From contig CAVSID010000001.1 in assembly GCA_963727915.1 (NCBI GenBank), forward strand, positions 665,927 through 729,926: 64,000 bases of DNA, in the 5' to 3' direction. The DNA is from an uncultured Chloroflexia bacterium. Lineage in GTDB: Bacteria; Chloroflexota; Anaerolineae; Anaerolineales; E44-bin32. A program made the translations under genes and the position numbers. The notes beneath the pieces were generated by a model. It made no database searches. It saw nothing but the letters and a program-made list of their open reading frames with translations, and was not told the origin of the DNA. This document shows, one piece after another, positions 4,066 to 60,011 of this stretch; position 1 is the stretch's first letter, and each line of letters opens with the position of its first letter.

Positions 4066-4081
4066 CGTGAAAATGCTCACA
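4066..4081. promoter_or_regulatory. CRP/FNR-like palindrome CGTGA-AAATGC-TCACA (one mismatch)
   Basis: Intergenic, 39 nt upstream of the dsbA-like ATG. Member of the recurring TGTGA-N6-TCACA family. Confidence 0.4.
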
Positions 4082-4119
4082 AGTAGGTCATCATCGCTTC
4101 GTGCGGCGGGAAGGGTGGC

Positions 4120-4791
4120 ATGAGCAAGCGCGCATCAAGGGTCAAACCCGGGCGGTTGCGCCGAAGTTGGCTCGGGGTGCTGGTGGCGCTGGTGGCTGTT
4201 GCCGGCGCGCTGTTCGGCTGGCAATGGCGGACCCAGCCGGCGGCCACGCCTGCCGTGTCCGCTGAACGGATCGCCGAGCAGCACAGCCGAGGACCGGCCG
4301 CAGCTGAGGTGACCATCATCGAGTACGGGGATTTTGACTGCCCGACCTGCAGGGCCTATTACAACTCAGGCACATTGCAGCGCCTTATGGAAGCCTACCC
4401 GGACCAGGTCCGCCTGGTCTTCCGCCACCTGCCGATCATCACACCCGTCTCCCCCAAGCTGGCGGAGGCATCCGAGTGTGCCGCCGATCAGGGTGCTTTC
4501 TGGGCCTTCCACGATCTTCTGTTCGCCATGGCACCGACGCAGCCGGCCCAGATGCCGGACCTGGCCAAGCAACTCGGCCTCGACGCCGGGGCCTTCACAG
4601 CCTGCCTCGACAGCGGGCGCTACGCCGGTTTGGTCGAGGCGGAGACGCAGGAGGGCTTCCAACATGGCTTCCACGCCACGCCGGCCTTCTTGGTCAACGG
4701 CGAACCGCTGGTCGGTCCGCCCTCCTTCGACCAACTCCAACAGCGGATCGACGCCATCCTGCAGCTTTCCAAGCAAGGAGCCCCCTCATGA
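4120..4791 (+). CDS. DsbA-family thiol:disulfide oxidoreductase, membrane-anchored
   Basis: Intact 223 aa. N-terminal TM helix, thioredoxin-fold active site CPTC in IEYGDFDCPTCRAYY, DsbA-like C-terminal part (ATPAFLVNGEPL). Confidence 0.8.
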   Translation: MSKRASRVKPGRLRRSWLGVLVALVAVAGALFGWQWRTQPAATPAVSAERIAEQHSRGPAAAEVTIIEYGDFDCPTCRAYYNSGTLQRLMEAYPDQVRLVFRHLPIITPVSPKLAEASECAADQGAFWAFHDLLFAMAPTQPAQMPDLAKQLGLDAGAFTACLDSGRYAGLVEAETQEGFQHGFHATPAFLVNGEPLVGPPSFDQLQQRIDAILQLSKQGAPS

Positions 4792-5330
4792 CCGACCTGT
4801 CCGAATTCCGAAAGGAGAAGGACGACTTCTTCAGAGAGAGCCCACAAAGCCCTCTCACGCCGCAGCAGCAGGCCGATTTCGACGGGCTGCGCTACTTCCC
4901 CGAGGATCCCGACCTGGATCTGGAGGTAACCGTGGCTCCGTTTGACGAGCCGGAGACAATCCAGATGCAAACCACTACCGGCGACATCCAGACGTATCAG
5001 CGCTACGGTCGGTTTGCTTTCGACATCGACGGGCAAACCGCCGAGCTGACCGTCTATCACAACCAGCATGGCTACTTTCTGCCCTTCGTCGACTCGCTGC
5101 GGGGCAAGGAGACCTACGGTGCCGGTCGCTATCTCGAGCCGGAGCCGCTGGGCGGGGACCACTTCCAGGTGAATTTCAATCTCGCCTACAACCCCTACTG
5201 TGCCTACAACGAGGCCTGGTCATGTCCGATCACGCCTGCTGAAAACAGGCTCGCGGTGCCGATCCGGGCCGGCGAGAAGGTCTTCCACGATTCGACAAGC
5301 CTGAGCCGCAAATTCCGGTCTGATTTGTGA
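4788..5330 (+). CDS. DUF1684 domain-containing protein
   Basis: ATG at 4788 overlaps the upstream stop (ATGA). MTDLSEFRKEKDDFFRESPQSPLT...GAGRYLEPEP...NFNLAYNPYCAYNEAWSCPITPAENRL matches the DUF1684 pattern as I remember it. Confidence 0.7.
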   Translation: MTDLSEFRKEKDDFFRESPQSPLTPQQQADFDGLRYFPEDPDLDLEVTVAPFDEPETIQMQTTTGDIQTYQRYGRFAFDIDGQTAELTVYHNQHGYFLPFVDSLRGKETYGAGRYLEPEPLGGDHFQVNFNLAYNPYCAYNEAWSCPITPAENRLAVPIRAGEKVFHDSTSLSRKFRSDL

Positions 5331-5341
5331 ATATTTTCACA
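5326..5341. promoter_or_regulatory. Perfect CRP/FNR-like palindrome TGTGA-ATATTT-TCACA (extended ATTTGTGAA-TATT-TTCACAAAT, 5323-5344)
   Basis: Overlaps the DUF1684 stop codon. About 47 nt upstream of the TTGACA -35 at 5380. Confidence 0.5.
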
Positions 5342-5379
5342 AATTTCGGGGGAAGACGCCACATCTGGCGGAGGTTCAG

Positions 5380-5408
5380 TTGACAGGCGGCGCTGGTGGG
5401 GGTATCAT
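5380..5408 (+). promoter_or_regulatory. Sigma-70-type promoter TTGACA-17-TATCAT
   Basis: TTGACA 5380-5385, 17-nt spacer, TATCAT 5403-5408. Predicted TSS ~5415, 5 nt before the in-frame GTG at 5420. Confidence 0.5.
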
Positions 5409-5419
5409 CTCCAACCATC

Positions 5420-5800
5420 GTGGAACCGGTACCCAATCCAAACCCCCCAAAAGACTTCGCCCATCCGATTGAAGCCGAATTCGCCCGGCTGTTGGATTTC
5501 TACAAGATCCCGTGGTGTTACGAGCCGACAACGTTCCCCTTGGCCTATGGGCCCGAGGGGGCGATCCTGGAGGCTCTGACGCCGGACTTCTACCTGCCTC
5601 CCTTCGACCTCTACGTGGAGCTGACCACCCGCCGGCAATCGACGCTCACCCGCAAACACAGCAAGATCCGGCGCCTCAACGAGCTGTATCCGCAGGTCGA
5701 ACTGAGGCTGCTCAATCGTCGGCAGATGCGCAGCCTGCTCTACAAGTACGACCTGCAGGATCGCCTGCCACAGACTGATCGGTGCCCCCAACGTCTAATG
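5420..5800 (+). CDS. Hypothetical protein upstream of hpt (end uncertain, probable indel in the C5 run near 5785)
   Basis: Frame of ORF 5396-5947. Start moved to GTG 5420 because of the promoter. FAHPIEAEFARLLDFYKIPWCYEPTTFPL...PDFYLPPFDLYVELTT; no family recognised with confidence. Confidence 0.35.
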
Positions 5801-6449
5801 CACAGCCATCGGTCGACGGCCTCGACCTGGGCCCGACCATCTTCGACGCAGACCAGATTCGGACCGGCGTGCGCCGGCTGGCGATGGGAATCTCGGCCGA
5901 TTACCCGCATGGCGATCTGGTCATGGTCGGCATCCTGCCCGGAGTGATCTTCTTCCTCGCCGACCTGGTTCGATCGCCTCACCGTTCCTGTCGAGGTGGA
6001 CCTGATGGCGATCACCCGCTTTGGCCCACCAGAAGCCACCGGAGGCGAGGTGCGTATCCAGCGGGACATCGAGGCCGGTATCCAGGGCCGGCCAGTCCTG
6101 CTCGTCGAAGATATCGTCGACACCGGCCTAACGGTGCACCACCTCATGGGTGCCCTCATCCCACGCCAACCAGCGTCGATCAAGATCGCCGCACTTCTCG
6201 AACGACCGGGTCGCCGCCTGATCCGGGTGCCATTGGCGTATGCCGGCTTCACCGGCGCCGGAGGACTTCCTCGTCGGCTATGGGCTCCAGTACCAGGGCC
6301 GCTACCGGCAGCTCCCCTACATCGCCCAGCTTACTCCCGGCGAGCTCGACACCCTTAGGCTTGGATTTGCTGGCCTCGAAAAGCAAAGGCGGCGCCTGAT
6401 GGCGGCGCCGGCCTGGGGGTTAAAAAGGGGTGAGAGAGACCCCGAGTAA
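5782..6449 (+). CDS. hpt: Hypoxanthine phosphoribosyltransferase (2 apparent frameshifts)
   Basis: Stitched fragments: IFDADQIRTGVRRLAMGISADYPHGDLVMVGILPGVIFFLADLVRS / VDLMAITRFG...GEVRIQRDIEAGIQGRPVLLVEDIVDTGLTVHHL...IKIAALLERP / EDFLVGYGLQYQGRYRQLPYIAQL. PRPP-binding motif VLLVEDIVDTG. Confidence 0.75.
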
Positions 6450-6695
6450 CTTACATCCGTTCCCAGTTTCCGGTCGATTACTTGCTTCAGTTCCAGGAAC
6501 TGAAGCCGCCTACGTTGGCCCCCGATCGGCCGGTGCCCGAAGGCCCTTGCCGCTCGCTCGTTGGCTTCCCTGGCCCGAGAGCCTTTCCGCCAGCCTCCGG
6601 TTCTTCTGCATGAGATGAACCGCTCGCCAACTTCAGTTTGTTTTCTTCGACCTTCCCCTGAGATCGTCTCTGGGCTTCAGGGAGCCTCTCTCAGT
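6422..6695 (-). ncRNA. Candidate stand-alone ~270-nt transcript (unknown RNA or small-protein mRNA)
   Basis: Own promoter (TTGACT-18-TAGGAT), stem-loop GGGGT-CTCTCTC-ACCCC followed by TTTTTA at 6443-6422, internal 23-nt perfect palindrome at 6484-6506. Only short, SD-less ORFs inside. Confidence 0.3.
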
Positions 6696-6701
6696 GGGGA
6701 C

Positions 6702-6731
6702 ATCCTAGCACTTTCGCACCCGACGAGTCAA
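6702..6731 (-). promoter_or_regulatory. Promoter TTGACT-18-TAGGAT for the candidate RNA
   Basis: -35 at 6731-6726, -10 at 6707-6702 (minus strand). Two direct repeats TTCTTTAAGG (forward CCTTAAAGAA 6741-6750 and 6762-6771) lie 21 bp apart just upstream. Confidence 0.45.
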
Positions 6732-6780
6732 TGACTTCAGCCTTAAAGAATCGGTCGCGAACCTTAAAGAAAGTACTAGT

Positions 6781-7877
6781 CTAGACAGGTTTCGGCTGTT
6801 CCGACGGGTCCGTCGGAGTCAAGAAACGCCGCCGGTAGCGCATGAGGACCAGCAGCAGAGCAAACTGGCCGCTGGCCTTGAGGATTGTGCCAAACTGTTC
6901 GAAGTAGAAGATCACCAGATCGACGGTCGTCAAGGCGAGCAGCAGGCCCAGGTAGCCGAAGCCTGCTGCCGTGTTCTTCTCGACCGACCATGAACAACAC
7001 GGCCGAGATCAGAAGGACAAGGCCGGTGCAGGCCTCCAGCGCAACACGCGCCGTGTACCATGCCAGCCCGCGCGTCGAGCCGATGCGGCCCAGCTCAACC
7101 AGAGCCTGAATTTGGTCGGCGGCCTGCTGTGGCTGGAGCAGCGGCCAAATCCGGGAGAGCGCCAGGCCTCCGGTCAACAGCAGCCCGGCCACAATGATCA
7201 GCTTGGTAACCCGCCGCGAAAAATACCTCGCCTCGAAAGCGGCCAGCCGATCCTGGACGCGCTCGATGAACGTGTCATTGTCCGGCGCAAGTTGAAGCTC
7301 CGGATCTGCCACAACCACCAATATGCCTTCCGCCAATCGGCCAAGATCGCTGTCCTCAGTATGCTCGACGACGTACCGCAGCCGGCGCTCTAGATCGGAG
7401 CGTTCATCCGCCTCCAGGTCGTGGTCCAGAAGCTCCTCCAGATCGTCCAACGCCCGATAGAGTTCGGCCCGAGGCGAGCGGCGGGGTTCCCGACGCACGC
7501 GGGAGTACAGCAGGACCGTCAGCAAGAAGAAGGCGTAGACAATCGGCGCCGCCGCCGGGTAGAAATAGTCATTGGACTGCGTGATGAATTTCCCGACCTC
7601 ATCAATGAAGAGCCCCATCCCGATTCCGGCCGCAAGGGCACTGGTGACGTAGGACCAGCGGTTGGCAATCATCAGGGGGATCAGGGAGGCCACGAACAGG
7701 AACAAACCGCCCCAAAGCACGTGCGCGATATGGAACTCACCCCCTCCCACTTGGGGGTAGCCGGTCAAGCTCAAGAAGAGCCGGGTAAGCGATACCGATC
7801 GCGGCGAAGCTCAGCAGGGTGATGAGAAGAAAGGTGTCGGCCTGCCGGCGCTTGACAGGCCGGCGGACATGACTCAC
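6781..7877 (-). CDS. Hypothetical polytopic membrane protein (at least 2 apparent frameshifts)
   Basis: GTG 7877 (VSHVRRPVKRRQADTFLLITLLSFAA), then ORF 6776-7774 (GYPQVGGGEFHIAHVLWGGLFLFV...). True C-terminus in a third frame: FGYLGLLLALTTVDLVIFYFEQFGTILKASGQFALLLVLMRYRRRFLTPTDPSEQPKPV, stop TAG at 6781. Confidence 0.5.
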
Positions 7878-7885
7878 GGCGCGCT

Positions 7886-9927: not shown

Positions 9928-10003
9928 CGCCCTAAGTCTACTGCAGGCTCGCTGGGGCGCTCAGTGACCGACTGGCCTGAGAGACACGCTGATTCGGTCC
10001 GCC

Positions 10004-12828
10004 TCAGGCAGCCGCCGGCAGGGCGGTCCTGCGGCCCATCGCCCACTTGGTGAGCTCGGCCGCCACGGATGGGATGACCAGGAGCGGCAGGATGATCTCC
10101 CACTGGGCCAGGGTCAACGGATAGGTGTCGAAGATTGGCTCGAGGACCGGGACGTAGATGGCCACCAGCAGGAGGAACAGCGACGACAGGCTGGCCAGGA
10201 CCATCGCCCGGTTGCTGAAGAACCCCAACCGGAACAGGGAGAAGGTCTCCGATCGCGCCGTGAAGGCCCGCAGCAGTTCCGAGAACGAGAGAGTGGCGAA
10301 AGCCATCGTCTCGGCGATCTGGGCATGGTCGGGGAAAGCCTTCAGTCCGATAAGATAGGCCGTCAGGGTGGCACCCGTAATCGCCACCGTCTGAACCGTA
10401 ATCCCCACTCGCATCATGCGGTTGATGATCGGCTCATCCGGCGGGCGGGGGGGCTTGTCCATCGTGTCCGGATCACCCTTCTCCATCCCAAGGGCCAAAG
10501 CGGGCGCCCCGTCCGTGATCAGGTTGAGCCACAGCAGCTGGATAGCCGTGAGCGGTGACGGCAGGCCCAACAGGATCGCCAGGAAGATGGTCATGATTTC
10601 GGCCACGTTGCATGACAAGAGGTAGTAGACAAACTTGCGGATGTTGGCGTAGATGATGCGGCCTTGCTCGACGGCAGCGACAATGCTCACGTAGTTGTCA
10701 TCGGTGAGCACCATGTCGGCCGTCTCCTTGGCCACGTCGGTGCCGGTGATACCCATTGCCACGCCAATATCGGCCCGCTTGAGCGCCGGCGCGTCGTTGA
10801 CCCCGTCGCCGGTCATGGCAACCACTTGTCGATGCGACTTGAGGGCGTCGACGATGCGGACTTTGTGCTCGGGAGACACCCGGGCGAAAACGTCGGTCTG
10901 CAGCACGCATTGGCGCAGGGCGGCGTCATCCATCTCCGCCAACTCGCGGCCGGTGGCGATCGCGTGACCCGGTTTGAGCAAGCCGATCTGCTCGGCCACC
11001 GCTCGGGCAGTGTCGGGGTAATCGCCGGTGATCATCACCGTGCGGATGCCGGCCCGATCGGCGGTTTGCAGTGCGTCCCTGACTTCCTCGCGGGGCGGGT
11101 CGATCATCCCGATCAGGCCCACGAAGGTCAGGTCCCGCTCCACAGCCTCCGGCCGGGAAGCCTCGGGTACGTCGACTTCGACACGATACGCCACTGCCAG
11201 AACGCGCAACGCCTGCTGCGCCATCTTCTCGTTGGCATCCAGGATCTTCGATCTCAGGTCGTCCGTGAGCGGCCGCTGCGAGTCATCGGCCGCCTGATAG
11301 CGAGAGCACAGTTCAAGGATGACCTCGGGGGCACCCTTCGTCGCCGCCACCTCCCACGCAAATAGCGACTGATCATAGAACGGACTGGCGTCCTCGGCGC
11401 GCTGGCGCCTTCAGACTGTGGATGGTCGTCATCCGTTTGCGGGCCGAGTTCGAAGGGGATCTCTTCGATCCGAGGATAAGCTTCGTACAGAGGTTCCTTC
11501 CAGATCCCAGCCTTGGCCGCCGCCAGCATCAGCGCCGCCTCGGTGGGCTCCCCGACGACCCGGAACCCCCCCTCGCCGTCGGGATCTCGCTCGATCACAG
11601 CATCGTTGTTGAGAGCTGCCACCCACAGGGCCGTGGTCAATGCGGGCAGGCTGTCGACCGAGATCGGTTTCCCGTCCAGCTTGAACTCGCCGCGAGGCTC
11701 ATTCCCCGGGCCGGTGATCTCGACCATCCGGCCGTCGACCCACACTCGGGTGACTGACATGCGGTTCTGGGTCAGGGTGCCGGTTTTGTCGGAACAGATG
11801 ACGGTGGTCGACCCTAGGGTTTCCACCGAGGAGAGCCGGCGGATAAGTGCGTTGCGGGAGATCATCTCGCGCATGCCAAGGGCAAGCGTGATGGTCACGA
11901 CCGCCGGCAGCCCCTCAGGCACGGCCGCCACCGCCAGGCTCACGGCCACCAAGAACATCTCCAGCGGATCGAAGCCCCGGAGCCAACCCAGGGCGAAGAC
12001 GGCGCCGCAGATCGCCAGCGCTCCCCATCCGAGCACACGCCCTAGCTGATCGAGCCGGCGCTGAAGCGGGGTCTCTTCGTTTTCGATTTCACTGATCATC
12101 CCGGCGATGCGGCCTAGCTCGGTCCGCATGCCGGTGGCCACAACCAGCCCCCGCCCCCGTCCGCCTGCGACGAGCGTTCCGGAATAGGCCATGTTCATTC
12201 GGTCCCCCAAAGACGCATCCACCAATTCGATGGGCGCCGTCTCTTTGCTCACGGTGCGCGATTCGCCAGTCAGAGCCGATTCGTCCACCCTGAGATTGAC
12301 GGCTTCGGACAAGCGTAGATCGGCCGGGGTGTAGTTCCCCGACTCGAGCAGGACGATGTCCCCCGGGACCAACTTGGACGAGGCGACCTTGTGCCGGTGG
12401 CCGCCGCGGATGACAAAGGCATCCGGGGCAGCCAGCTTCCGCAACGCCGCCAAGGCTTGCTCGGCCCGCCGCTCCTGGATCACCCCCAGGACGGCATTGA
12501 GCACCACAATCGCCATGATCGCCCCGGCCTCGAAGTAGTCGCCCAGAACAGCAGACACTACCGAGGCTACGATGAGCACGATGACGATGAAATTGTTGAA
12601 CTGGGCGACCAGGTTGTGCCAGAAGCCCGGCCGCGGCGCCTCTTGAAGCTCATTGGGGCCGAAATGCGCCAGGCGACCGTCGGCTTCCAACTGGGACAGG
12701 CCAGCATCCAAGGATGTGGCCAGGGCATCGGATGTCTCGGCGACATCCAGCATGTGCCACCGGCGTGGGTCCGCTTCCTGAGTGGCGTTGCCTTCGGTTG
12801 TCAGCTCAGCTGATCGGGAAGGTTCCAA
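10004..12828 (-). CDS. Cation-transporting P-type ATPase, type IIA (Ca2+/Mg2+-like), one apparent frameshift near 11300
   Basis: ICSDKTGTLTQNRM phosphorylation motif, TGES, MITGDYPDTA, MTGDGVNDAPALKRADIGVAMG hinge. Fragments 11254-12828 and 10004-11350 are collinear. Confidence 0.9.
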
Positions 12829-12875
12829 GACTAACCTCGCGGGGCTTGAAAGGGGATTGTCGGTAGTCGCCCGAG

Positions 12876-12884
12876 ATTATAGCA
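12876..12884 (-). promoter_or_regulatory. Extended -10 promoter TGcTATAAT for the P-type ATPase
   Basis: Minus strand reads GGATGCTATAATCTC. The same ATGCTATAATC context occurs upstream of icd. Confidence 0.45.
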
Positions 12885-12961
12885 TCCGGGCCATCGTCGT
12901 TGACTGACGCGCGGATGACACACAGGCGACGCCCGGGGCGAGGCCGGCCGTCTCTTCTGTT

Positions 12962-12977
12962 TGTGAGGATTTTCACA
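12962..12977. promoter_or_regulatory. Perfect CRP/FNR-like palindrome TGTGA-GGATTT-TCACA
   Basis: Between the phoU stop (12993) and the ATPase promoter. Confidence 0.5.
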
Positions 12978-12992
12978 TGTTGAGCGGGGGGG

Positions 12993-13691
12993 CTATTCCA
13001 TACCCATCAGTTCGTCTGGTTCGGGGTTGAGCTCGCGGATTTCGCCGCTTATCATATAAAGCACGCGCTCGGCGATATTGGTCACTCGGTCGGCAATGCG
13101 CTCGAGGTTGTGGCCAACGAACAGCAGATACAATGCCGACTCGGGTCCCATCCCGGGTTGGCCTATCAGGCCCAGGAACCTGGTGAACAGCTCCTGATAG
13201 CGCTGGTCCATCACGTCGTCCTTGCGGGCGATGGCCAGGGCAGCGGTGGCGTCTTGTGTCTTGTAGGCATCCAGCACCTGACGCAGCATAGCCAGCGACA
13301 AGTCATTCATGGCCTGCAGGGACACGGGCAGGGCGAAATCGGACTCGGCCGGCATGCGCAAACAAACCTTGGCGATGCCGGCAGCGTAGTCGCCGATGCG
13401 TTCCAGGTCCGTTACCACGTTCAGTGCCGCGACCAAACGCCGCAGGTCGCTCGCCGCCGGCTGCTGGGTGGCGATGGTCGAAAGACAGCTCTCTTCGATC
13501 TTGAAGCGCAGCTCATTGATGGCCTTGTCCCCCTCGACGACTTGCTCGGCTTGGCTGTGATTTCGGTGGACGAGGGCGCTCATAGCGCGGTCGACCGCCC
13601 GAATGACATCGTCGCCCAGGGTCATCAGGTTGTCCTGGATCTTGGCCAGGCTGCGGTCAAATGCCGGTCGGCTCTTGCCCATGGGTCTCAC
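12993..13691 (-). CDS. phoU: Phosphate signalling complex protein PhoU
   Basis: Intact 232 aa. Two PhoU repeats (E..D..IN.. / IGDYAAGIAK and LERIADRVTNIAE). Follows pstB. Confidence 0.9.
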   Translation of the reverse strand: MRPMGKSRPAFDRSLAKIQDNLMTLGDDVIRAVDRAMSALVHRNHSQAEQVVEGDKAINELRFKIEESCLSTIATQQPAASDLRRLVAALNVVTDLERIGDYAAGIAKVCLRMPAESDFALPVSLQAMNDLSLAMLRQVLDAYKTQDATAALAIARKDDVMDQRYQELFTRFLGLIGQPGMGPESALYLLFVGHNLERIADRVTNIAERVLYMISGEIRELNPEPDELMGME

Positions 13692-13716
13692 CTACTCGCG
13701 GCGGCTGGCAGGTTCC

Positions 13717-14622: not shown

Positions 14623-14625
14623 AGG

Positions 14626-26681: not shown

Positions 26682-26864
26682 CCCGCCGCGTTGGCATGTC
26701 ATGCCGAGGCGCCGCCAGGCGACGAAGCCACCGTTTCGTCTGGGCAGATCGGAACGATGGCCACGCTCGCTGGCCATGACACACAGTCGCTCCACGACGA
26801 AAGCCGACCTCAAAGCTGTTCAGCCCAGTCGGCCGGGATGACCATCATCCTCAAGGTTAGAGTA

Positions 26865-26880
26865 TGTGAAATACTTCACA
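26865..26880. promoter_or_regulatory. Perfect CRP/FNR-like palindrome TGTGA-AATACT-TCACA
   Basis: Intergenic, ~90 nt upstream of ATG 26964. Confidence 0.5.
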
Positions 26881-26963
26881 AGCCGCGACCTCGGCGCAAG
26901 AGTCCTCGTATAGCAATGGAGGACAACCTCAGACACAGACCCATCCCGGAAGGAGATCCGCTC

Positions 26964-31375: not shown

Positions 31376-32044
31376 GTGATCGTCAAACTCTTGTTGGCAT
31401 TCTTTCGGTCCGGATTGTGGCTGCTGACTCGAACGCAGGTTGACGGGATCGAGAACGTGCCTGATCCCCCCTACATCCTGGCCACCAACCACCTGGGGAC
31501 GCTTGACGTCCCCTTCATTTATGGCACGGTTGGCGGCCCGCACCTCGTCGGTTGGGCGGCCGAGAAGTATGAACGTAGCCTGATCCGGGGCACCATCCTT
31601 AGAGCAGGCGGGGCGGTCTTTATTCAGCGCGGCAAGGTGGATCGGCATGCCCTGGACTTCGCCGTCGAGACCCTTAAGAGCGGGAAGTCTTTCGGCATGG
31701 CACCGGAGGGCACGCGCAGCCCTCACCACAGCCTGATTCGCGGCAAGACCGGTGTGGCTTATCTGGCCGCCGAGTCCGGCGTGCCCGTGGTGCCCGTGGC
31801 GCTCACCGGCACCCATCGCCCGTATGATCATTGGTTGCGGCTGCGCCGCCCCCTGATGACGGCGCGCTTCGGACCCCCGTTCCATCTTCCGCCCCTTCCA
31901 GAAGAGGGACGTGGGGAGGCCCTGCGCAAGAACACCGATGAGATCATGTGCCGCATCGCAGCGTTGCTGCCACCCGAATACCGCGGCCTCTACGCCAATC
32001 ACCAGCGCACCCTCGAATTGATCGCGCAGGGGTACGGCTACTGA
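31376..32044 (+). CDS. plsC: 1-acyl-sn-glycerol-3-phosphate (lysophospholipid) acyltransferase
   Basis: Intact 222 aa. NHLGTLD (NHxxxxD) and APEGTRS motifs. Confidence 0.85.
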   Translation: MIVKLLLAFFRSGLWLLTRTQVDGIENVPDPPYILATNHLGTLDVPFIYGTVGGPHLVGWAAEKYERSLIRGTILRAGGAVFIQRGKVDRHALDFAVETLKSGKSFGMAPEGTRSPHHSLIRGKTGVAYLAAESGVPVVPVALTGTHRPYDHWLRLRRPLMTARFGPPFHLPPLPEEGRGEALRKNTDEIMCRIAALLPPEYRGLYANHQRTLELIAQGYGY

Positions 32045-32078
32045 GCCCGCGCTGGTTGTCCAAGCCCGGGATACGCTT

Positions 32079-32094
32079 TGTGAAATCTTTCACA
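32079..32094. promoter_or_regulatory. Perfect CRP/FNR-like palindrome TGTGA-AATCTT-TCACA
   Basis: In the plsC-membrane gene gap, 17 nt before ATG 32111. Confidence 0.5.
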
Positions 32095-32110
32095 ATCTGA
32101 GGCTCATCCG

Positions 32111-32738
32111 ATGTCCCTTTTGAATCCGCTTTCGATCCTGTTCTTTAGCCTGACATTGGCTGCACTGGGCTCCCTTATCGTCCTCGCCCGTGGGGCCACC
32201 GACCGACAAAGCCCGGCCTTCGGCTTGGCCGCCCTGGGATTGATCGGAAGTTTAGATGCGATGTCGCTGTTGGGGGGCTTCTCCATCGGGCCGGTCATGG
32301 CCCTGGTGGCGGTTCCCCTGGCGGTGCTGCTTGCCTGGGGGGCAGGCAGCTTTCGCATGCCGCTGGGGTTGATGGCGGTGGCCACGGCGCTGCTGGCCGT
32401 GGGTGCGCTTCAAGGCGGGTTGTCTGGGACCCTGCGCTGGGGGCTCGGATTTGGCCTGGCGGCCGTCGCCGCGCTCTCCGTGATGCGGCTGGTGCGCTTC
32501 TGGGCGAGCCGCGAAACCGGCGAGTTCAGCGGTTGGTGCCTCGCGCTGAGCGCAGCCCTCGGCGGCGTTGGCCTGATCTTCGGCATTCCCGATCCGGGGG
32601 GGATCGGACTGTGGGCGGCCCGGGCGGGCGCCGTTGCGGCGGCCGGCCTGGTGTTCTTTGCCGCGGCGCTTCCAGCTCGGCCTGGTCGCTGTGGCTCTCC
32701 TCGACGCTCTGTTGGCCCTCGGTCTCTCCGGCTTCTGA
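32111..32738 (+). CDS. Hypothetical membrane protein (apparent frameshift near 32680)
   Basis: Gly/Ala/Leu-rich multi-TM sequence. Plausible C-terminus FQLGLVAVALLDALLALGLSGF, stop 32736-32738 in another frame. Confidence 0.45.
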
Positions 32739-49227: not shown

Positions 49228-49261
49228 GATCCCGGCCCAAGATCGCCGCTATCGCTGCCCA

Positions 49262-49945
49262 ATGACCTCCCTAGGCTCGAGGGCCATGACCGTGCACCGG
49301 CGCCTGCTGCGGGCCTACGGCCAGCCGGTTTGGCGGGTGCGCCTCCCGCCTCTCGACGAGCTAGTGTCGACGATCCTCTCCCAGAACACCAACGACGACA
49401 ACCGCGATCGAGCCTTTGAATCGCTTCGTAGCGCTTTCCCAAGTTGGGAAGCCGTGCGCGACGCCGACCCCAAGGACGTGATCGATGCCATCAAGACTGC
49501 CGGTCTGGCCAATCAAAAGGGGCCTCGCATCCAGGCCGTGCTCCGCCAGATCACCCAAGAACGGGGCGAACTCGACCTGGATTTCCTGAGCGGCAAACCG
49601 CCGGATGAGGTCCACTCGTGGTTGCTTAGCTTCAAGGGCGTTGGGCCCAAGACAGCCGCCATCGTGATGCAGTTCGCTCTGGATATGCCAGCCTTCCCTG
49701 TCGACACCCACATCCACCGGGTCACCCGCCGGCTTGGCCTGTGCCCACAGGACGCATCTGCCGACAAAGCTCACAAGATCCTGGCGGAAATCTTCCCTCC
49801 CGAGACATACTACGCTGCGCATCTCAATCTGATCCGGCACGGTCGCGAGGTGTGCCGGGCCCGCCGGCCGGAATGCGCGGTCTGCGTGCTGACCGATGTG
49901 TGCGACTTCTACGGCAAGAACGTTGCGCCAAGCAACTTGGCTTGA
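49262..49945 (+). CDS. Endonuclease III-family HhH-GPD DNA glycosylase with 4Fe-4S cluster loop
   Basis: Intact. LSQNTND, GVGPKTAAIVMQFAL..PAFPVDTHIHRV, C-x6-C-x2-C-x5-C (CRARRPECAVCVLTDVC). Confidence 0.85.
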   Translation: MTSLGSRAMTVHRRLLRAYGQPVWRVRLPPLDELVSTILSQNTNDDNRDRAFESLRSAFPSWEAVRDADPKDVIDAIKTAGLANQKGPRIQAVLRQITQERGELDLDFLSGKPPDEVHSWLLSFKGVGPKTAAIVMQFALDMPAFPVDTHIHRVTRRLGLCPQDASADKAHKILAEIFPPETYYAAHLNLIRHGREVCRARRPECAVCVLTDVCDFYGKNVAPSNLA

Positions 49946-49973
49946 GGAGAGTCCCAAAACCATCGTGCCCAAC

Positions 49974-50597
49974 ATGACTCCGGGCGACCGCTTCCCCCTC
50001 TTGCTGTATTACTTCGCCGTGAGCCGCTACCGCCGCCCGTCGATGCTCCTGGCCCTGCTCTTGCTTGGTCTGTGGTACCCGGTGAACCTCGACCTGCTTC
50101 CCTGGCCGAGACCGCCCGCCGACGCATGGCTCTTGGCTGGCGGGTTTGTCTCGCTCGCTTTCTGGCTGTTTGCCTTGATCGGCCCTCGTCTGGCCTACGT
50201 CCAGCCGCGGGAGGACCACCTGCGTTTACAGACCCCTATCTATCGCCTCAAGGTCTCCTATCGACGCGTCCTGAACACGCGGGCCGTCGAGTTAGCCAAG
50301 CTTCTCCCCCCGAGTGATTTGTCGAGCGGAAAACGGCGTCTGCTGGCGCCTTTCTATGACCGCACGGCCGTGGGCGTCGATCTGGAGGGCTACCCGCTCC
50401 ATCCGCTGTTGATGCGCCTGTTCCTGCACGACCTGTTCTTTGCGCCCGACCGCACCGGCCTCGTGCTGATCGTGGCTGACTGGATGCGGCTCAGCAACCA
50501 GCTTTCGGATGGGCTGCAGGCGTGGCGGGATTCACGGCGGCATCGCACGGCCCCTTCGGACGCCGCCGCCATCCTTGACGACACTCATCTGGACTGA
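49974..50597 (+). CDS. Hypothetical membrane protein
   Basis: Start chosen at MTPGDRFPLLLYYF. Two or three N-terminal TM helices. No family recognised. Confidence 0.45.
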   Translation: MTPGDRFPLLLYYFAVSRYRRPSMLLALLLLGLWYPVNLDLLPWPRPPADAWLLAGGFVSLAFWLFALIGPRLAYVQPREDHLRLQTPIYRLKVSYRRVLNTRAVELAKLLPPSDLSSGKRRLLAPFYDRTAVGVDLEGYPLHPLLMRLFLHDLFFAPDRTGLVLIVADWMRLSNQLSDGLQAWRDSRRHRTAPSDAAAILDDTHLD

Positions 50598-50612
50598 GCC
50601 ACCCTCCGCGCT

Positions 50613-50628
50613 TGTGCCGTTTTTCACA
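50613..50628. promoter_or_regulatory. CRP/FNR-like palindrome TGTGC-CGTTTT-TCACA (one mismatch)
   Basis: Centre at 50620.5. Candidate -10 TATACT at 50670-50675. Confidence 0.4.
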
Positions 50629-50721
50629 ATCCCCTGGTCCGGCTTCGCATAGCACCTTCTCCCACCCGGTATACTCTTCTTGAGAGCCGTTGACGGCTCC
50701 AGCCAGCGGAAGGGAGTGCAT

Positions 50722-51411
50722 ATGGCGTTCAAAGTGACCTGGTTTGGGCATGCCGCGTTCGGTGTCGAAACCGGAGGCGAAGACCTGCTGATCGATCCTT
50801 TCCTCAGCGACAACCCATCGACCGACGTCGACCCCGACAGCCTGAACCCGGACTACATCCTCATTTCCCACGGTCACGGGGATCATGTGGGCGACGCCGT
50901 GGCCATCGCCAAGCGCAGCGGGGCGATGGTGATCAGCAATTTCGAAATCGCCAATTGGTTTGCCTCCCAGGGTGTGGATTCCCATGGCCAGCACCTGGGC
51001 GGTGGGCATCAGTGGCCCTTCGGCTATTTGAAGCTGACCCTGGCGCTGCACGGCTCTTCGATGCCCGACGGTTCCTACGGCGGGAACCCGGCGGGCTTCC
51101 TTCTCACAACCAACGCTGGGGAGAAAGTCTACTTCGCTTGTGATACGGGCCTGTTCGGAGACATGCGGTTGATTGGGGAGGAAGGCATCGATCTGGCGCT
51201 GCTGCCGATCGGCGACAACTTCACCATGGGACCCGACGATGCCGTCCGGGCGGTCAGGCTGATCCAACCCAAATACGTCATCCCGGTTCACTTTGACACT
51301 TGGGACCTCATCGCACAAGACGCCCAAGCCTGGGCCGCCCGGGTCAAGAGCGAAACCCAGGCCGAGCCCCATGTGCTCCAGCCGGGAGATAGCTTCAGCC
51401 TACCGGCCTAG
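50722..51411 (+). CDS. Metallo-beta-lactamase-fold hydrolase, UPF0173 family
   Basis: Intact. MAFKVTWFGHAAF, ILISHGHGDHVGD, LLPIGDNFTMG, VIPVHFDTW. Confidence 0.8.
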   Translation: MAFKVTWFGHAAFGVETGGEDLLIDPFLSDNPSTDVDPDSLNPDYILISHGHGDHVGDAVAIAKRSGAMVISNFEIANWFASQGVDSHGQHLGGGHQWPFGYLKLTLALHGSSMPDGSYGGNPAGFLLTTNAGEKVYFACDTGLFGDMRLIGEEGIDLALLPIGDNFTMGPDDAVRAVRLIQPKYVIPVHFDTWDLIAQDAQAWAARVKSETQAEPHVLQPGDSFSLPA

Positions 51412-51427
51412 GTCGCCTCGAGGGCGT

Positions 51428-52831: not shown

Positions 52832-52832
52832 A

Positions 52833-53963: not shown

Positions 53964-54092
53964 GCTTCGTTTCGCGAATCCGCCACCTTTTCGCCGCAAT
54001 CCACTTTGCAGATGCACCATACGCCCGCAATCTGATACCCTTTTTGCACTCATCTCTAATGACGCCAGCCGATCGCCACGACGAGGTCAACC

Positions 54093-56426
54093 GTGAGCTC
54101 GTTTGACAGCGGATCCTTTCCTAAAGTTTTGACCTTGTACCTTGAGCTCAGCCAATACCCCATCCTGGCCGGCCGCATCCGCGAACGCATGCGTCGGGAG
54201 CTGTTCGAACGCGGCGTCATTGCGCGCAACGACTTCGAGGCCGAAGTCCGGGAAAAGGCGCTGCAGTCGCAACGCAGGGAGGGGCTTTCCGATCCTTTCG
54301 GCGAGGAACCGCCTGATGTCTGGGCAAGACGCCAGGAAATCGTCCGCGAGAACCTGACCGATTTCTATTTCGCCTACAACCTGCCCCACGAGGATTTTGA
54401 ACGTATTGTTCGCAGCGTTCTTGAAGACCGGGTTCCCTCTCAGAAAGTCGTCCTGACCTTCCACCCCGAGCTGGCGCCCTGGGATATGCTGTTCTCCCAG
54501 GGTGAGGCCTACGAGGCCCTCCCCGCCGAAGAGCGCCCACGGGTCATGCACGATCTTCGCGAAATCAAGGTGGTCCTGATCAAAGCTATGATCAGCGATC
54601 ACCTGAAGTATCTGGGGATCGCCAAGGATTGGCTGGACATCGCCGATCTCAAGCGAGTGCGCTCCCGCCGCTTGGGGCGTGGCAAGATCGGCGGCAAGGC
54701 AGCCGGCATCATCCTGGCTGATGCCGTTCTCAGGAAGATCGGCCGGCCCCGAGTTCCTCGATCACCTGAGGGTCCCTCCGTCCTGGTTCATCGGCGCCGA
54801 TGTCTTCTACCAATTCACACAGATGAACGGACTGCTGGGGTACGCCAACCAGAAATACCGGGAGGGTGACGAAATCCGCCAAGCGTACCCCGCGATCCGC
54901 GAGGCGTTCATGCAGGGCGAATTTCCAGATGAGATTGTGGACGGCCTGACCGGAATCCTCGAAGAGTCCGGCACCAGCCCGCTAATCGTCCGTTCGTCGA
55001 GCTTGCTCGAGGACTCGTTCGGGACCTCCTTCGCCGGCAAGTACGAAAGCCACTTCCTCCCCAACCAAGGGAGCGATGACGAGAACCTGAAGGCGCTCCT
55101 CAAGGCGATCGCCTCTGTCTATGGCAGCGTCTACAGTCCGGAAGCGCTCTTCTACCGTCAGCGCATGGGCCTGATCGATTACGACGAGCGGATGGCGATC
55201 CTGATCCAGGTCGTTCAGGGTCAGCACATGGGCCGGTACTTCTTGCCGGATGCCGCCGGGGTTGCCTTTTCTCGCAATCAGTTCCGCTGGAGTCCGCGCA
55301 TCGACCGCACCTCTGGTTTCTTGCGTCTTGTGTGGGGGCTTGGGACGCGCGCCGTGGAGCCCGCCGGCGGGGATTACCCTCGCCTGGTCGCGCTCAGCCA
55401 TCCCGAGCTGCGCCCGGAATCGGAGGCGGAGGAGATCCGGCGCTATTCTCAACACTTCGTCGATCTGATCGACCTCGACGGCAACCAGTATGAGACCTTG
55501 CCCGTACCCAAGGTGGTGAATGCCGGTGTGCCCAGCCTGTCACTGATCGCCCAGAGCTTACCAAGACGGCGGGCTGCATGCCCTCGCCAACCGACCGCTG
55601 GATCTCGACCCGGCGAAGATTGTGATCACATTCCAAGAGCTGCTCCGCCGCACGGCGTTTCCAGCATTGATGCGGCGGATGCTGTCGACCCTCGAAACTG
55701 CCTACCAGAATCCGGTGGATACCGAATTCGCCCTTCTGGTTCACGCAGGGGAGGGCGGAGAAGGCCCAAATCTTGACATCTGCCTGCTCCAGTGCCGACC
55801 CCAGAGCCGCCTCGAGGACGAACGGGTCCAGCTTCCCAAAGACGTCCCAGACGATCGGCGTTTGTTCTTGGTGCAGCGCATCGTCCCCGAGGGCCGCGTC
55901 TCCAACATCCGCTACGTGCTCTACGCCAGGCCCGCTGCTTGCAGGGCGCTGGACCATGATCAAAGGCTCCTGATGGCCCAGGTCATAGGCGAGATCAACC
56001 GCCGCCTGGAAGGGCAGTCCTTCGTCCTGATGGGCCCTGGGCGATGGGGAAGCGCCAACCCCGACATCGGCATTCCCGTGACCTACGCCGACATCTACAA
56101 CGCGCGGGCCATCATCGAGGTCTTCGATGGAACCGACACACCCGAGCCGTCCTATGGGACCCACTTCTTCCAGGACCTGGTCGAAGCCCGCATCTTTCCT
56201 CTGTCAATCGCCGTCGAGGATCCGGCCACGTACTTCAACCGTACCTTCTTCGAGGATTCACCCAGCGTGCTGAACGAACTGCTCCCCGATGCATCGGCCT
56301 GGTCCGATGTGTTGCAACTGATTGATATCCCCGCCGCCGCGGGGGGTGCTGCATTTGGAGTTGGTCATGGACGGCGAGGCCAACTCGGCCATGGGTTACC
56401 TCGCCGACGAGCCGGGCACCGGCTGA
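54093..56426 (+). CDS. PEP/pyruvate-binding (PPDK N-terminal-like) domain protein (about 3 apparent frameshifts)
   Basis: GRGKIGGKAAG, LIVRSSSLLEDSFGTSFAGKYES, VAFSRNQF, PVDTEFAL motifs typical of the ATP-grasp nucleotide-binding domain of PEP synthase/PPDK. Frame changes near 54740, 55560 and 56340. Confidence 0.7.
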
Positions 56427-56496
56427 GCACGGCTCAGGCGATTTCGAACACGACGGCTTGGAAATTGGCGTTTGGGAGAAAGCCGATGGCTAGCAC

Positions 56497-57192
56497 TTAG
56501 CCGCGTCCGAACCATCTCCGGTGTCGAGCCAACGGCAGCGGCACGTCCCACCCCTGATCCCCCACCAGGGGCACAAAGGCCACCGGCACCATCTCTTCTA
56601 CCGAGATTCTTTCGCCCTCTCGGGTCCAGCGCTCCAGCATTTGCCCCTGGCGGCCGCCGACCGGGACGACCAGCCGTCCGGAATCGGCCAACTGTTCCTT
56701 CAGCGCCTGCGGCGCGCTCGGCGCCGCAGCCGTCACGATGATGGCGTCGTAGGGGGCATGCTCCGGCAGGCCAAGTGAGCCGTCCCGCTCGAGGACCGTC
56801 ACGTTGGTGTACCCCAGCCGGCCAAGCACGTCGCGCGCCCGGTCCCCCAGCGTGTCCAAGCGCTCCAGCGAATATACCTGCTTCGTCAACTCGGCCAAGA
56901 TGGCGGCCTGGTAGCCCGAACCCGTGCCGATCTCCAGCACCGTGTCCGTCGGCTCCAACTCCAGAAGCTGGGTCATCAGGGCAACGATATATGGCTGCGA
57001 GATGGTCTGCGAAACCCCTATGGGCAGTGGCGCGTCGGCGTAGGCATGCTGGCGCGATTCCTCGGGGATGAATTCCTGGCGGGGGATCTTACGCATGGCA
57101 GCCAGCACGCCGGCGTCGCGAATATCGCGCAGCTCAAGCTGCTGGTGAACCATGCGTTCGCGAGCTCTGGCGAACTCGCTGTCCTCAGTCAT
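56497..57192 (-). CDS. pcm: Protein-L-isoaspartate O-methyltransferase
   Basis: Intact. QTISQPYIVALMTQLL, VLEIGTGSGYQAAILA, AIIVTAAAP. Confidence 0.9.
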   Translation of the reverse strand: MTEDSEFARARERMVHQQLELRDIRDAGVLAAMRKIPRQEFIPEESRQHAYADAPLPIGVSQTISQPYIVALMTQLLELEPTDTVLEIGTGSGYQAAILAELTKQVYSLERLDTLGDRARDVLGRLGYTNVTVLERDGSLGLPEHAPYDAIIVTAAAPSAPQALKEQLADSGRLVVPVGGRQGQMLERWTREGERISVEEMVPVAFVPLVGDQGWDVPLPLARHRRWFGRG

Positions 57193-57219
57193 GACCCCCT
57201 CATTTCACAGCACGGGCAA

Positions 57220-57870
57220 TCACCAACCGTGCGCCAGGCGCTGCTCTTTCCACACATCGGCCTGGTTGTGGTAGCCGGCCTGCTCCCAGAAGCCCAGTCG
57301 GTCTTCGCTCATGAACTCCAGTCCCCGCAGCCATTTTCCGCCCTTCCACAGATAGGGCGTCATCAGGTCCTCCCGCCCTTCGACGGCGCCGACCACGCCC
57401 CGCAAGGGGTAGCCATGATCCGGCGTCAGCGGCTGGCCCTCGAAATGTGTCGCCAAAAGGAAGTTGTCCGCCAGGGCGACATCGAGGGGGATGTTGACGG
57501 TGAAGTTGTATTCGCAATGCTGCATCACATACTTGGCCGTAGGCTTGAGAGCAAGCAGCCCCTCGTCGATCAGCGTCCGCACCGAGACACCCTCCCAAAG
57601 CGTTTCGAATTTGCTCCAACGTGTGACGCAGTGGATATCCATCTCTATCTTGGTGCGCGGCAGTGCCTGGAATTGCTCCCAGGCCAGGCTGCGCTCGCGT
57701 TCGACCTCACCCCAAAGTCGGAGCGTCCACGTCTGAGGATCGAAACCTGGAACCGGGCCGTAGTGCAGCACCGGAAACTTCTCCGTCAGCGACTGCCCGG
57801 GCGGAAGACGCCCGGCTGCTTTGAGCTGCTTCTCCCGCTCGCGGCGGCCAAGGATGCTTCCAAGCGACAA
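57220..57870 (-). CDS. Sulfite oxidase-like molybdopterin-binding oxidoreductase domain protein
   Basis: Intact 216 aa, TTG start after GGAGGTGG. FPVLHYGPVP...W.L...G.V......L....F..LP......DIHCVTRWSK...W.GV pattern. Confidence 0.75.
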   Translation of the reverse strand: MSLGSILGRREREKQLKAAGRLPPGQSLTEKFPVLHYGPVPGFDPQTWTLRLWGEVERERSLAWEQFQALPRTKIEMDIHCVTRWSKFETLWEGVSVRTLIDEGLLALKPTAKYVMQHCEYNFTVNIPLDVALADNFLLATHFEGQPLTPDHGYPLRGVVGAVEGREDLMTPYLWKGGKWLRGLEFMSEDRLGFWEQAGYHNQADVWKEQRLAHGW

Positions 57871-57999
57871 GTTCCACCTCCACTGGTTGTGCGCCCTGAT
57901 TATATATCACAGGGGGTGGCGGCCTGCTTTTCACGGGAACCATCAGCGCCCGGAGGGCGTCTGGAGATTGACAGTCCCGACAGGACCAAGGAGGCCCTG

Positions 58000-59492
58000 A
58001 TGAGACCCCATCTTCCGCTCAGACTGCTCCCTCTTGCGGCTGTTCTTACCGGCGCCTTGCTTGCGTGCGGTTGGATCACCACCGGACCGCTGCCCACGGG
58101 CACCCGTCCACCCCAAACAGCCGAAGCCGCCGACCAGGGCCTGGCCCTCACGATCTACAACCAGGGAAGCGCCCTTGTCCGTGATCGGCGCGTGTTCAAT
58201 CTCGCCTCCGGTTTGAACGAGATCGCTTTCGATGACGTGGCGGCATCGATGGACCCCACCAGCGTCCTCTTCAAGGCCCTCGATCATCCCCTGCAGGTCG
58301 GGGTCCTAGAACAGAACTTCCAATACGACCTGGTGGGCGCATCGACCCTGCTGCAGAAGTACCTCGGACAGACGATTACCGTCGTCACCCAAGACGGACA
58401 GACGACCAGCGGCAAGCTGCTTTCCGGGAGGGACTCACTCATCCTGCAGGATTCGTCCGGCCGGGTCAACGTGATCTCTTCCGGTGCCGTCCAGGGTTTC
58501 TCGTTCCCGGATCTCCCGGAGGGCTTGATCAGCAAGCCCACGCTTGCCTGGCAACTGAACTCGGACCGAAGTGGCCAGGAGGCATTCGAGCTGACCTATC
58601 TTACGGGCGGCGTGAGCTGGCAGTCGGATTATGTCGTGCTGCTCAATCCGGACGAAACGTCGATCGATCTCGACGGGTGGGTGACGTTGAACAACACCAG
58701 CGGCGCCACGTTCCGTGACGCGCTGCTCAAACTGGTGGCCGGCGATTTGCAGCGACTGCAGAACCAGGGGATGTCGGCCCCGCAGGCCGCGCTGCAAGCC
58801 GAGCGGGCTGCCACCGACCAGACTATCGATGAGCGCTCTTTCTTCGAATATCACCTGTACGAGGTGCCCCGCCCAGTAACGGTCAAGAACAATGAGACCA
58901 AGCAGGTCCAGTTTGTCAGCTGCGCACAGCGTCCCCGCTGAGAAGTTCTTCGTCTACGACGGGACTCAGTGCCGAAGTAATCCCTGGTACTGCAGCTACG
59001 CCGGCTACCCACAGACCGATCCCAGCTACGGTGTCAGTTCCAATCCCAAGGTCATGGTGATGGTCGAGTTCAACACCGAAGACGTGGACGCCGATCTGCC
59101 CAAGGGCAGGGTTCGACTCTACAAAGAAGATGTCGATGGGGCGGCATTGCTGATCGGCGAGGACTTCGATCGACCACACCCCCAAGGGCGAGCACCTGCG
59201 CCTGTACGTCGGAGATGCCTTCGATATCGTCGGCGAGCGCGTCCAGACCGACTTCACCCGGCCCAGCGAGAACCGCCTCGAAAAGTCCTACAAGATCACC
59301 TTGCGCAACCACAAGGACGAGCCGGTTGAAGTGCGCGTGGTAGAACATTTGTTCCGGTGGAGCGATTGGCGGATCTTGCGTTCATCCGACGACTACACAA
59401 AGCTCGACTCCTCCAATGTCGAGTTCCGGGTGCAGGTCCCAGCCAACGGCGAGCGCAGCGTGACCTACACCGTGCGCTATTTCTGGCCGTGA
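58000..59492 (+). CDS. DUF4139 domain-containing lipoprotein (2 apparent frameshifts)
   Basis: Lipobox LTGALLAC. LTIYNQGSALVRDRR, ELTYLTGGVSWQSDYV, WVTLNNTSGATF, FEYHLYEVPRPVT, ITLRNHKDEPVEVRVVE... Confidence 0.7.
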
Positions 59493-59545
59493 GTTTCGCC
59501 GGCGACGCGCTTTATGCCGCCGGGCGGAGTAACAAGGGCGGCCCG

Positions 59546-60011
59546 ATGGGCCGCCCTGCCCGCCGGCGGTGGTTCGCACTGGCCGCTGTGTGCCTGGCGT
59601 TGACCGGCTGCGGTATTCAAACCGGCCGACCCGAGCCCGGCTCATCCGCGCGGGCATTCTCAGGCACATTCCAAGCTGCCTGTGGCCCGACGGACGCCAC
59701 AGCGCTCCAGTTGGACCTGGTTCCAGTAGAGGGCGGTCCGGAACCGGTGGTGTCGATCAACTTGTGGGGGACCGGCCTACCCACTGGCCCACTTGTGAAA
59801 TCCTTCACAAACCTTGAGGGTGGTTCTGGTCGGTGGTGCTCCAAAGACGGCGCGTGCATCCAGGCGTCACAGCGGCACGATCTGGTTCGACACGATCGAC
59901 AACAGCCAATTCGTTACCGGGAGGCTCCGCTTATCGGCGGCATCCGGGGATCGCCAAGAAGGCATCTTCCGCGTCCAGCTGGACCGCCAGGATCCGGCCA
60001 CCTGCGGCTGA
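59546..60011 (+). CDS. Hypothetical small lipoprotein (one apparent frameshift near 59860)
   Basis: MGRPARRRWFALAAVCLALTGCG lipobox. Contains an in-frame copy of the TGTGA-N6-TCACA palindrome at 59794-59809. Confidence 0.4.

Follow-up and report, generated by a model that had tools for sequence, protein, structure and literature searches.

Binding sites of a bacterial regulator are normally few, degenerate and located at promoters. The regulons of Rex described in Streptomyces, Staphylococcus, Bacillus, Thermus and Caldicellulosiruptor follow this pattern, with a handful to some tens of often imperfect promoter sites at redox and energy genes. We analyzed a 64,000-nt stretch (hereafter the window; positions 665,927 to 729,926 of contig CAVSID010000001.1, GenBank assembly GCA_963727915.1) from the genome of an uncultured Chloroflexota bacterium. 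The window carries several copies of the palindrome TTGTGA-N6-TCACAA, which has a consensus identical to that of the Rex operator, and a canonical Rex gene, whose product has the same recognition helix, is present in the genome. Unlike the sites of known Rex regulons, however, the copies number about 330 in the genome, are mostly perfect, are biased toward gene 3' ends and convergent regions, are evenly spaced, and have neighbor genes without a common theme. This layout of conserved, evenly spaced copies, mostly behind genes, has not been described for the binding site of a regulator. A known operator thus appears to act here like a genome-organizing element.

Other systems share parts of this picture. 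Sites of CRP/FNR-family regulators (E. coli CRP, Corynebacterium GlxR and Mycobacterium CRP) have the same TGTGA-N6-TCACA core, and such regulators can have hundreds of sites. Repetitive extragenic palindromic (REP) elements of proteobacteria, including BIMEs and REPINs, are lineage-specific intergenic palindromes that number in the hundreds and are concentrated downstream of genes and in convergent regions. In E. coli, REPs are bound by IHF and gyrase, and they affect termination, mRNA stability and supercoiling. The sites of Noc (NBS), SlmA (SBS) and MatP (matS), as well as parS, are short palindromes for dimeric proteins that are scattered over the chromosome and are structural rather than gene-regulatory. 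These arrays differ from the palindrome studied here in that they contain 10–70 sites, are often confined to one chromosome region, are not tied to 3' ends, and are not known to have sites that repel one another.

The genome is a metagenome-assembled genome (MAG) of eight contigs (C1, C2 and so on), with a size of 3.6 Mb and a completeness of 81%. Results refer to this genome unless another one is named. It was compared with three sister genomes of the same uncultured Chloroflexota genus (G001, G002 and G003). Because of their relatedness, the four genomes amount to a single evolutionary event. Gene models were crude, home-made calls based on open reading frames (ORFs), and the assembly is frameshift-rich. 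A simple ORF-based caller covered just 76–81% of the genome, and several long genes looked split; DprA, for example, occupied two frames at C2:277,248–277,857.

Abundance, anatomy and conservation of the palindrome

An initial annotation of the window had reported five perfect copies of the 16-mer TGTGA-N6-TCACA, at 5326, 12962, 26865, 32079 and 59794. All five were confirmed at exactly these coordinates. The expected number was 0.02, and none of 100 shuffled sequences reached five. When one mismatch was allowed, the window contained seven copies against 1.0 expected, the additional two being at 4066 and 50613. The GC content of the window was 63.7%, close to the earlier estimate of about 65%.

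A genome-wide search with the same pattern found 236 perfect 16-mers. For the extended form, the 18-mer TTGTGA-N6-TCACAA, there were 195 perfect copies, 138 copies with one mismatch, and 90 copies with two. Three control patterns gave 0 perfect copies, 1–7 copies with one mismatch, and 27–69 copies with two. The number of real copies is roughly 330–370, and the majority of them are perfect.

The genome-wide logo was C-n-R-T-T-TGTGA-A-n4-T-TCACA-A-A-Y-n-G. It was symmetric over about 26 bp, which bore out the extended symmetry noted in the initial annotation, and it was flat outside. T at −1 was found in 89% of the copies and A at +5 in 65%; the core was invariant as a consequence of how the copies were selected. 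The spacer was rigid. All 195 perfect copies had N6, at most one copy each was found with N5 or N7, and everted or direct arrangements of the half-site were absent from the genome. The half-site TTGTGA occurred 1370 times, 390 of them within palindromes, and words of the same composition had a median count of 797, so that the half-site alone was barely enriched. Within the arms, the central G-T-G was practically never altered, and variation was tolerated at positions 1, 2 and 6. DnaA box, lac-type, TyrR and PadR motifs were compared by eye and ruled out by spacing or by the conserved positions.

Base pairing was analyzed in the same copies. Compensatory double changes were rare in the core; over all arm positions they were somewhat above chance (11 of the 90 double-mismatch copies). 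At flank positions able to extend the stem, R/Y positions included, pairing was no commoner than in shuffled controls. Spacer positions paired less often than those of shuffled controls. Predicted RNA hairpins were weak, with energies of −2.8 to −9.5 kcal/mol and typically −6. The G+C-rich hairpin and U tract of an intrinsic terminator were not found, as the stems were weak and A+T-rich and the logo had no T run. A hairpin or terminator reading was rejected on these grounds (flanks without covariation, no U tract, weak folds).

The flanks of the copies were not conserved, and membership in a longer mobile repeat, an outcome that the initial annotation had allowed for, was also rejected. Three copies with shared flanks were located in an extensive region of internal repeats on contig C4. 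This region (about 418,000–505,000, some 85 kb) contained well over 100 copies of a repeat of about 120 bp, one every 0.6–0.9 kb or so, and a few more copies of the repeat were found on contig C8 at about 115–119 kb. The 120-bp repeats are probably giant repetitive-domain genes.

Because the N6 spacing is strict, the GTG core is invariant, the flanks do not covary and the RNA hairpins are weak, the anatomy of the palindrome indicates a site for a symmetric dimeric DNA-binding protein rather than a structured RNA, a terminator or a longer repeat.

The window was colinear with the three sister genomes. DNA identity was about 66–88% per aligned block, mostly about 79% for G003 and G002 and lower for G001. 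Comparison of orthologous intergenic regions, which the initial annotation had suggested, found all six genuine window sites (A to F, described below) at orthologous positions in the other species, the exceptions being site A, degenerate in G003, and site F, which G001 lacks. The four-way alignment of the 64 kb contained no site confined to one species. In a further 475 kb of G003, the motif was present with at most two mismatches at the orthologous place for 39 of the 41 mapped sites; for random 80-nt windows the proportion was less than 1%. Identity between this genome and G003 was 0.95–0.97 in the arms, 0.68 in the spacer, and 0.52–0.56 in the flanks. Since orthologous positions were kept and the arms were conserved while the flanks diverged, the alignments indicate that the copies are old, immobile and individually under purifying selection, and that the ancestor shared by the four species already had them. 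Such per-site conservation argues for a local function at each site. It also argues against a pure decoy or sink role, in which the loss of one copy would cost almost nothing.

The expansion was confined to the genus. Each of the three sister genomes contained 145–189 perfect 18-mers, other genera of the family contained 0–1, and other families of the order contained 0–5. Among 400 evenly sampled Chloroflexota genomes, the maximum was 4 copies. A de novo census indicated that the palindrome was the sole abundant spaced palindrome in this genome and in G003. The same census found a different abundant palindrome in a relative from another family of the same order. In G030, also of this order (C1:1.0–1.4 Mb), ACCCAG(T)-N9/11-(A)CTGGGT was present in 12–13 copies in 400 kb against 0.05 expected; it is possibly REP-like. 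In addition, at least 34 MAG loci of Gemmatimonadota contained the 18-mer TTGTGAAATCCTTCACAA without a mismatch, and no other copies were found in the vicinity. This 18-mer looks like one highly conserved operator of that phylum. An expansion in Gemmatimonadota, which the many matches to this one 18-mer had suggested, was rejected after no extra copies were found in 260 kb of those loci.

The initial annotation had offered a short REP-like element as one of two explanations. This was partly borne out, as the copies are abundant, intergenic, located at 3' ends and lineage-specific. Decayed remnants of an ancient burst of elements like REPs or miniature inverted-repeat transposable elements, or RNA hairpins at mRNA 3' ends, could in principle produce such sites without any protein operator function. 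REP elements typically show the same bias toward 3' ends and convergent regions and the same restriction to a lineage, a hairpin of 6–10 bp can form from the palindrome, and the same-order relative has an abundant palindrome of its own. REPs, however, are longer imperfect hairpins, often in clusters or inverted pairs, and are mobilized by RAYT transposases, whereas the copies here are 18–26 bp long, solitary, neither paired nor clustered, and fixed in spacing, with a loop length that never varies. Their arms were 96% identical against 55% for the flanks, compensatory changes were rare in the core, and the hairpins were weak for a genome of 63% GC. Signs of recent mobility were not seen, and the 64-kb four-way alignment contained no species-specific insertions. 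A genus-specific RAYT was not found either. Weak Y1_Tnp matches lay inside long frames, were absent from G001, and were equal in relatives without the motif; a RAYT link was therefore rejected for lack of a genus-specific Y1 transposase gene. Taken with the conservation of the arms, these results make an origin as relic repeats or RNA hairpins highly improbable.

Location and spacing along the chromosome

Fully intergenic copies made up 74% of the perfect ones, and intergenic DNA is about 24% of the genome. Among intergenic regions of up to 300 bp, convergent ones had 1.23 sites per kb, co-directional ones 0.42, and divergent ones 0.14. Fisher tests gave p = 5e-4 for convergent versus divergent and p = 5e-6 for convergent versus co-directional regions. 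Some sites filled convergent gaps of 27–53 bp between recognizable genes, for example between an aminotransferase and an MFS transporter gene and between a PiT transporter gene and MiaA. In co-directional gaps, the sites were nearer to the upstream stop codon, with a median relative position of 0.27, and in about nine cases the TGA of the motif was itself the stop codon. The location rule is roughly two sites per convergent region, one per co-directional region, and none per divergent region.

The spacer asymmetry had no orientation bias relative to gene direction. A fixed distance to the −35/−10 elements of sigma-70 promoters was sought genome-wide, and it was rejected because no peak was found. 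A perfect palindrome was also observed within about 40 nt after a ComEA-like gene (HHH_3 domain; C1:71,751–71,987).

The excess in convergent regions and the paucity in divergent regions are the opposite of what a promoter-centered regulon predicts. In an oversized classical regulon, Rex or a CRP-type regulator would act on the promoter adjoining each site. Divergent regions, which have two promoters, were the poorest in sites, and convergent regions, which have none, were the richest, with gaps as short as those of 27–53 bp filled by some sites. No preferred distance to promoters was found genome-wide, the neighbor genes had no functional theme, and a CRP/FNR gene was absent from two of the four genomes. 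Sites of a regulon also tend to be degenerate and to occur in clusters, rather than being perfect and repelling one another. Some results did fit such a regulon. Every co-directional site in the window was also upstream of a gene, and sites A and E were centered at about −81.5 and −61.5, distances that were kept across species. Strong promoters were about twice as common near sites as near random intergenic positions (15 versus 7). In addition, 27 of the 78 copies classified as in-gene lay in the first 20% of the called genes, and these were probably upstream of the true starts. With both groups of results considered, we regard an oversized regulon as improbable.

The gaps between neighboring sites had a median of 8.2 kb and a mean of 10.3 kb. 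They were compared with 500 simulations in which the location class of every site was preserved. The observed coefficient of variation was 0.71, whereas the simulated one was 0.97 ± 0.05 with a minimum of 0.83. Short gaps were depleted. Of the 325 gaps, 2 were below 1 kb (19 in the simulations), 20 were below 3 kb (74 in the simulations), and 61 were below 5 kb (119 in the simulations). Long gaps were depleted as well, with 9 above 30 kb against 18 simulated. The sites repel one another over several kb and are evenly spread across all contigs.

Even spacing is also a property of DNA uptake sequences (DUS) of Neisseria and uptake signal sequences (USS) of Pasteurellaceae. Neisserial DUS are mostly intergenic, often just after stop codons and often in inverted pairs, and the distances between them follow the conversion fragment size (PMC2397512). 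The palindrome could likewise be a self-recognition tag, read by a transformation receptor or by a recombination or defense system, with copies accumulating where they are harmless. Like DUS and USS, it is lineage-specific, its perfect copies outnumber those with one or two mismatches, it is concentrated in intergenic DNA close behind stop codons, it has an inverted-repeat arrangement, and its spacing is more even than chance. Genes for ComEC, DprA and ComEA were present, but these competence genes are near-universal and prove nothing. Known uptake sequences are single asymmetric 9–12-mers that are also common inside genes at about 1 per kb. Here, in contrast, the palindrome is obligate and has a rigid 6-bp spacer, its half-site is not over-represented by itself, and the density of about 1 per 10 kb is some ten times lower. 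An exact match to the Rex operator would further have to be a coincidence. A role as an uptake tag therefore has little probability.

Candidate binding protein and possible function

The Rex operator consensus has been published as TTGTGAAW4TTCACAA (PMC2883068) and as TTGTGAANNNNTTCACAA (PMC6391272). The palindrome matches the consensus TTGTGAA-N4-TTCACAA exactly, including the T before TGTGA and the A after it. These two bases are not required in CRP sites, whereas they are strongly conserved in the palindrome, as in Rex sites. A Pfam search of 31 genomes found the Rex DNA-binding domain (PF06971) in 28, this genome among them; each of the four genomes of the genus had a single copy. The Rex of this genome has 206 aa and matched solved Rex structures, with E values of 3e-47 to 5zz5 and 1e-37 to 3ikt, the latter being the Thermus Rex–DNA complex. 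Its DNA-reading (recognition) segment was the same as in relatives. In one relative (G015), the sole perfect copy was directly upstream of nuoA, a classic Rex target. The operator match is too exact for chance, and binding to perfect operators should be expected of any canonical Rex. Rex is therefore the most likely binder, and we infer from the sequences that it probably occupies these sites.

The other explanation in the initial annotation was the regulon of a CRP/GlxR-like regulator. HTH_Crp_2 and Crp searches gave no match over the cut-off in this genome, which is 81% complete, or in G001. Six proteins with a cyclic nucleotide-binding (cNMP) domain were found, and none had a Crp-type HTH match at the same locus. 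A CRP/FNR-family gene (250–260 aa) was present in G002 and G003 only, in a syntenic place. In this genome, at C1 about 651,500–652,500 (about 13 kb before the window), homology ended at the border of that gene, and the gene was missing. The orthologue of the G002/G003 gene was thus absent, and a CRP regulon was rejected. The annotation had been right about a protein operator of the TGTGA-N6-TCACA type, but not about a CRP regulon, which lacks a gene in two of the four genomes, would not avoid divergent promoter regions, and would be expected to keep a promoter distance. Real CRP regulons also consist mainly of degenerate sites. Regulon prediction based on the motif would wrongly place hundreds of genes of these genomes in a CRP or a Rex regulon.

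The location rule, the per-site conservation and the mutual repulsion together suggest a role between transcription units. We tentatively propose that a symmetric dimeric protein, most probably the single canonical NADH/NAD+-sensing repressor Rex, binds the palindrome, TTGTGA(A)-N4/6-(T)TCACAA, with high affinity. The approximately 330 copies per genome (one per 10 kb or so), which are intergenic and lie just behind stop codons and between convergent genes, would each hold a tightly bound dimer between two transcription units. The bound dimer would be a local boundary that stops the read-through of RNA polymerase into the neighboring unit, the spread of supercoiling into it, or both. Should the protein be Rex, a rise in NADH would loosen the block. 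Taken as a whole, this reading of the sites as Rex-bound boundary or roadblock elements has a probability that we place a little below even, and the function of the complex as a roadblock or insulator is speculative.

Several results weigh against the proposal. Relatives with 0–5 sites also have a Rex with the same DNA-reading residues, and the protein therefore does not explain the hundreds of sites in this genus. Occupying about 330 strong sites would take much more Rex than is needed for a normal regulon. The nuoA promoter of this genome (C1:283,332–283,730) keeps the left half-site only, which overlaps a TTGACC-N16-TAAAAT promoter. Genes adjoining the promoter-side copies were functionally heterogeneous and had no redox theme. 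Terminator-like hairpins occurred at 12% of the 3' ends with a site and at 11% of those without. At sites A and E, the distance to promoter elements is exactly maintained between species, and a subset of the copies may also be ordinary operators or activator sites acting on the downstream promoter. The location statistics, finally, were computed with the crude gene calls of a frameshift-rich assembly. A second nuo cluster, on contig C5, carried CGTGA-N6-TCACG.

The presence of an unchanged Rex in relatives without the expansion would be expected if a different, possibly genus-specific dimeric protein of a nucleoid-associated or architectural kind bound the sites. The match to Rex would then be secondary, or Rex would merely compete for the sites. 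The conserved positions reach ±13 bp (C at −5, G at +20), which is wider than the 18-bp Rex consensus, and an even spacing of 8–10 kb suits an architectural protein. No candidate protein was found, however. It is very unlikely that chance would produce a 14/14 match to the consensus of a known operator, and perfect operators should in any case attract any canonical Rex that the cell contains. A different binder is therefore unlikely.

Rex itself may have been recruited as a chromosome-wide architectural protein. It would then form about 330 redox-gated boundaries, insulating at low NADH and opening in a reduced cell, and one boundary per 10 kb or so would correspond to the scale of bacterial supercoil domains. 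This extension of the Rex proposal is doubtful. If it is true, the metabolic state would be coupled to the insulation of transcription units genome-wide. More generally, if Rex binds the sites, they would represent a natural case of a metabolic sensor serving as a genome-wide boundary or roadblock factor. They would also provide a compact model for delimiting transcription units where classical terminators are scarce.

Sites in the window

The window sites are given as 18-mers, with no strand assigned. The neighbors named in the initial annotation were confirmed by Pfam as DsbA/thioredoxin, P-type ATPase, toast-rack protein, MBL-fold hydrolase and phosphoribosyltransferase. Rfam and tRNA scans of the window gave no match. 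The two one-mismatch copies of that annotation fared differently. The copy at 50613 was conserved and real (site E). The copy at 4066 (CCGTGAAAATGCTCACAA, 4065..4082), upstream of the DsbA-like gene, had two mismatches to the 18-mer, and the orthologous sequence in the sister genomes G003 and G002 contained no motif; it is probably not a member of the family.

Site A (5325..5342, TTGTGAATATTTTCACAA) was a perfect 18-mer. The initial annotation had noted that the copies often lie close after stop codons, and here the TGA of the motif was the stop codon of a DUF1684 gene (4788–5330). The site was conserved in G002 and G001 and was degenerate in G003. Downstream of it was a near-consensus sigma-70 promoter on the plus strand (5380..5408, TTGACA-17-TATCAT, 11/12 matches) that was nearly identical in all four species. 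Site A was 37 bp upstream of the −35 box, and this 37-bp distance to TTGACA was also identical in the four species. The promoter would drive an almost leaderless gene starting at GTG 5420. Between site A and the promoter was the box CCACATCTGGCGG (5359–5371), conserved in all four species, which may be the site of a second regulator.

Site B (12961..12978, TTGTGAGGATTTTCACAT) had one mismatch. It was 16 nt behind the stop codon of a PhoU gene (12993–13682, minus strand) and about 135 nt upstream of the P-type ATPase gene (11254–12828, minus strand). It was present in all four species, and its flanks had diverged.

Site C (26864..26881, ATGTGAAATACTTCACAA) had one mismatch, which was identical in the four species. 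It was located between an F420H2-quinone-reductase-like gene and the toast-rack-domain gene. Unlike at the other sites, the flanks (GAGTATGTGA...TCACAAGCCGCGACC) and a downstream CGTATAG box were also conserved in all four species (26840–26930). The region looks like a promoter/operator unit for the toast-rack-domain gene.

Site D (32078..32095, TTGTGAAATCTTTCACAA) was perfect. It was 34 nt behind the stop codon of an acyltransferase gene (31376–32044), and 15 nt separated it from the start of the next ORF (ATG at 32111). It was found in all four species, with one mismatch in G001.

Site E (50612..50629, TTGTGCCGTTTTTCACAA) had one mismatch and was perfect in G003 and G002. It was 15 nt behind the stop codon of the gene at 49923–50597, and a conserved TATACT box preceding the MBL-fold hydrolase gene (50722–51411) followed about 40 nt downstream of the site. 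The distance from the site to TATACT was 40–41 nt in three species, and the intervening sequence was not conserved.

Site F (59793..59810) was perfect, and its sequence was the 18-mer TTGTGAAATCCTTCACAA mentioned above for Gemmatimonadota. The region was deleted or unalignable in G001, and the site was conserved in G003 and G002. It was located between a gene for a 631-aa protein (57046–58941, plus strand) and a cytochrome-b5-like gene (60052–60372, minus strand), and the region is probably convergent.

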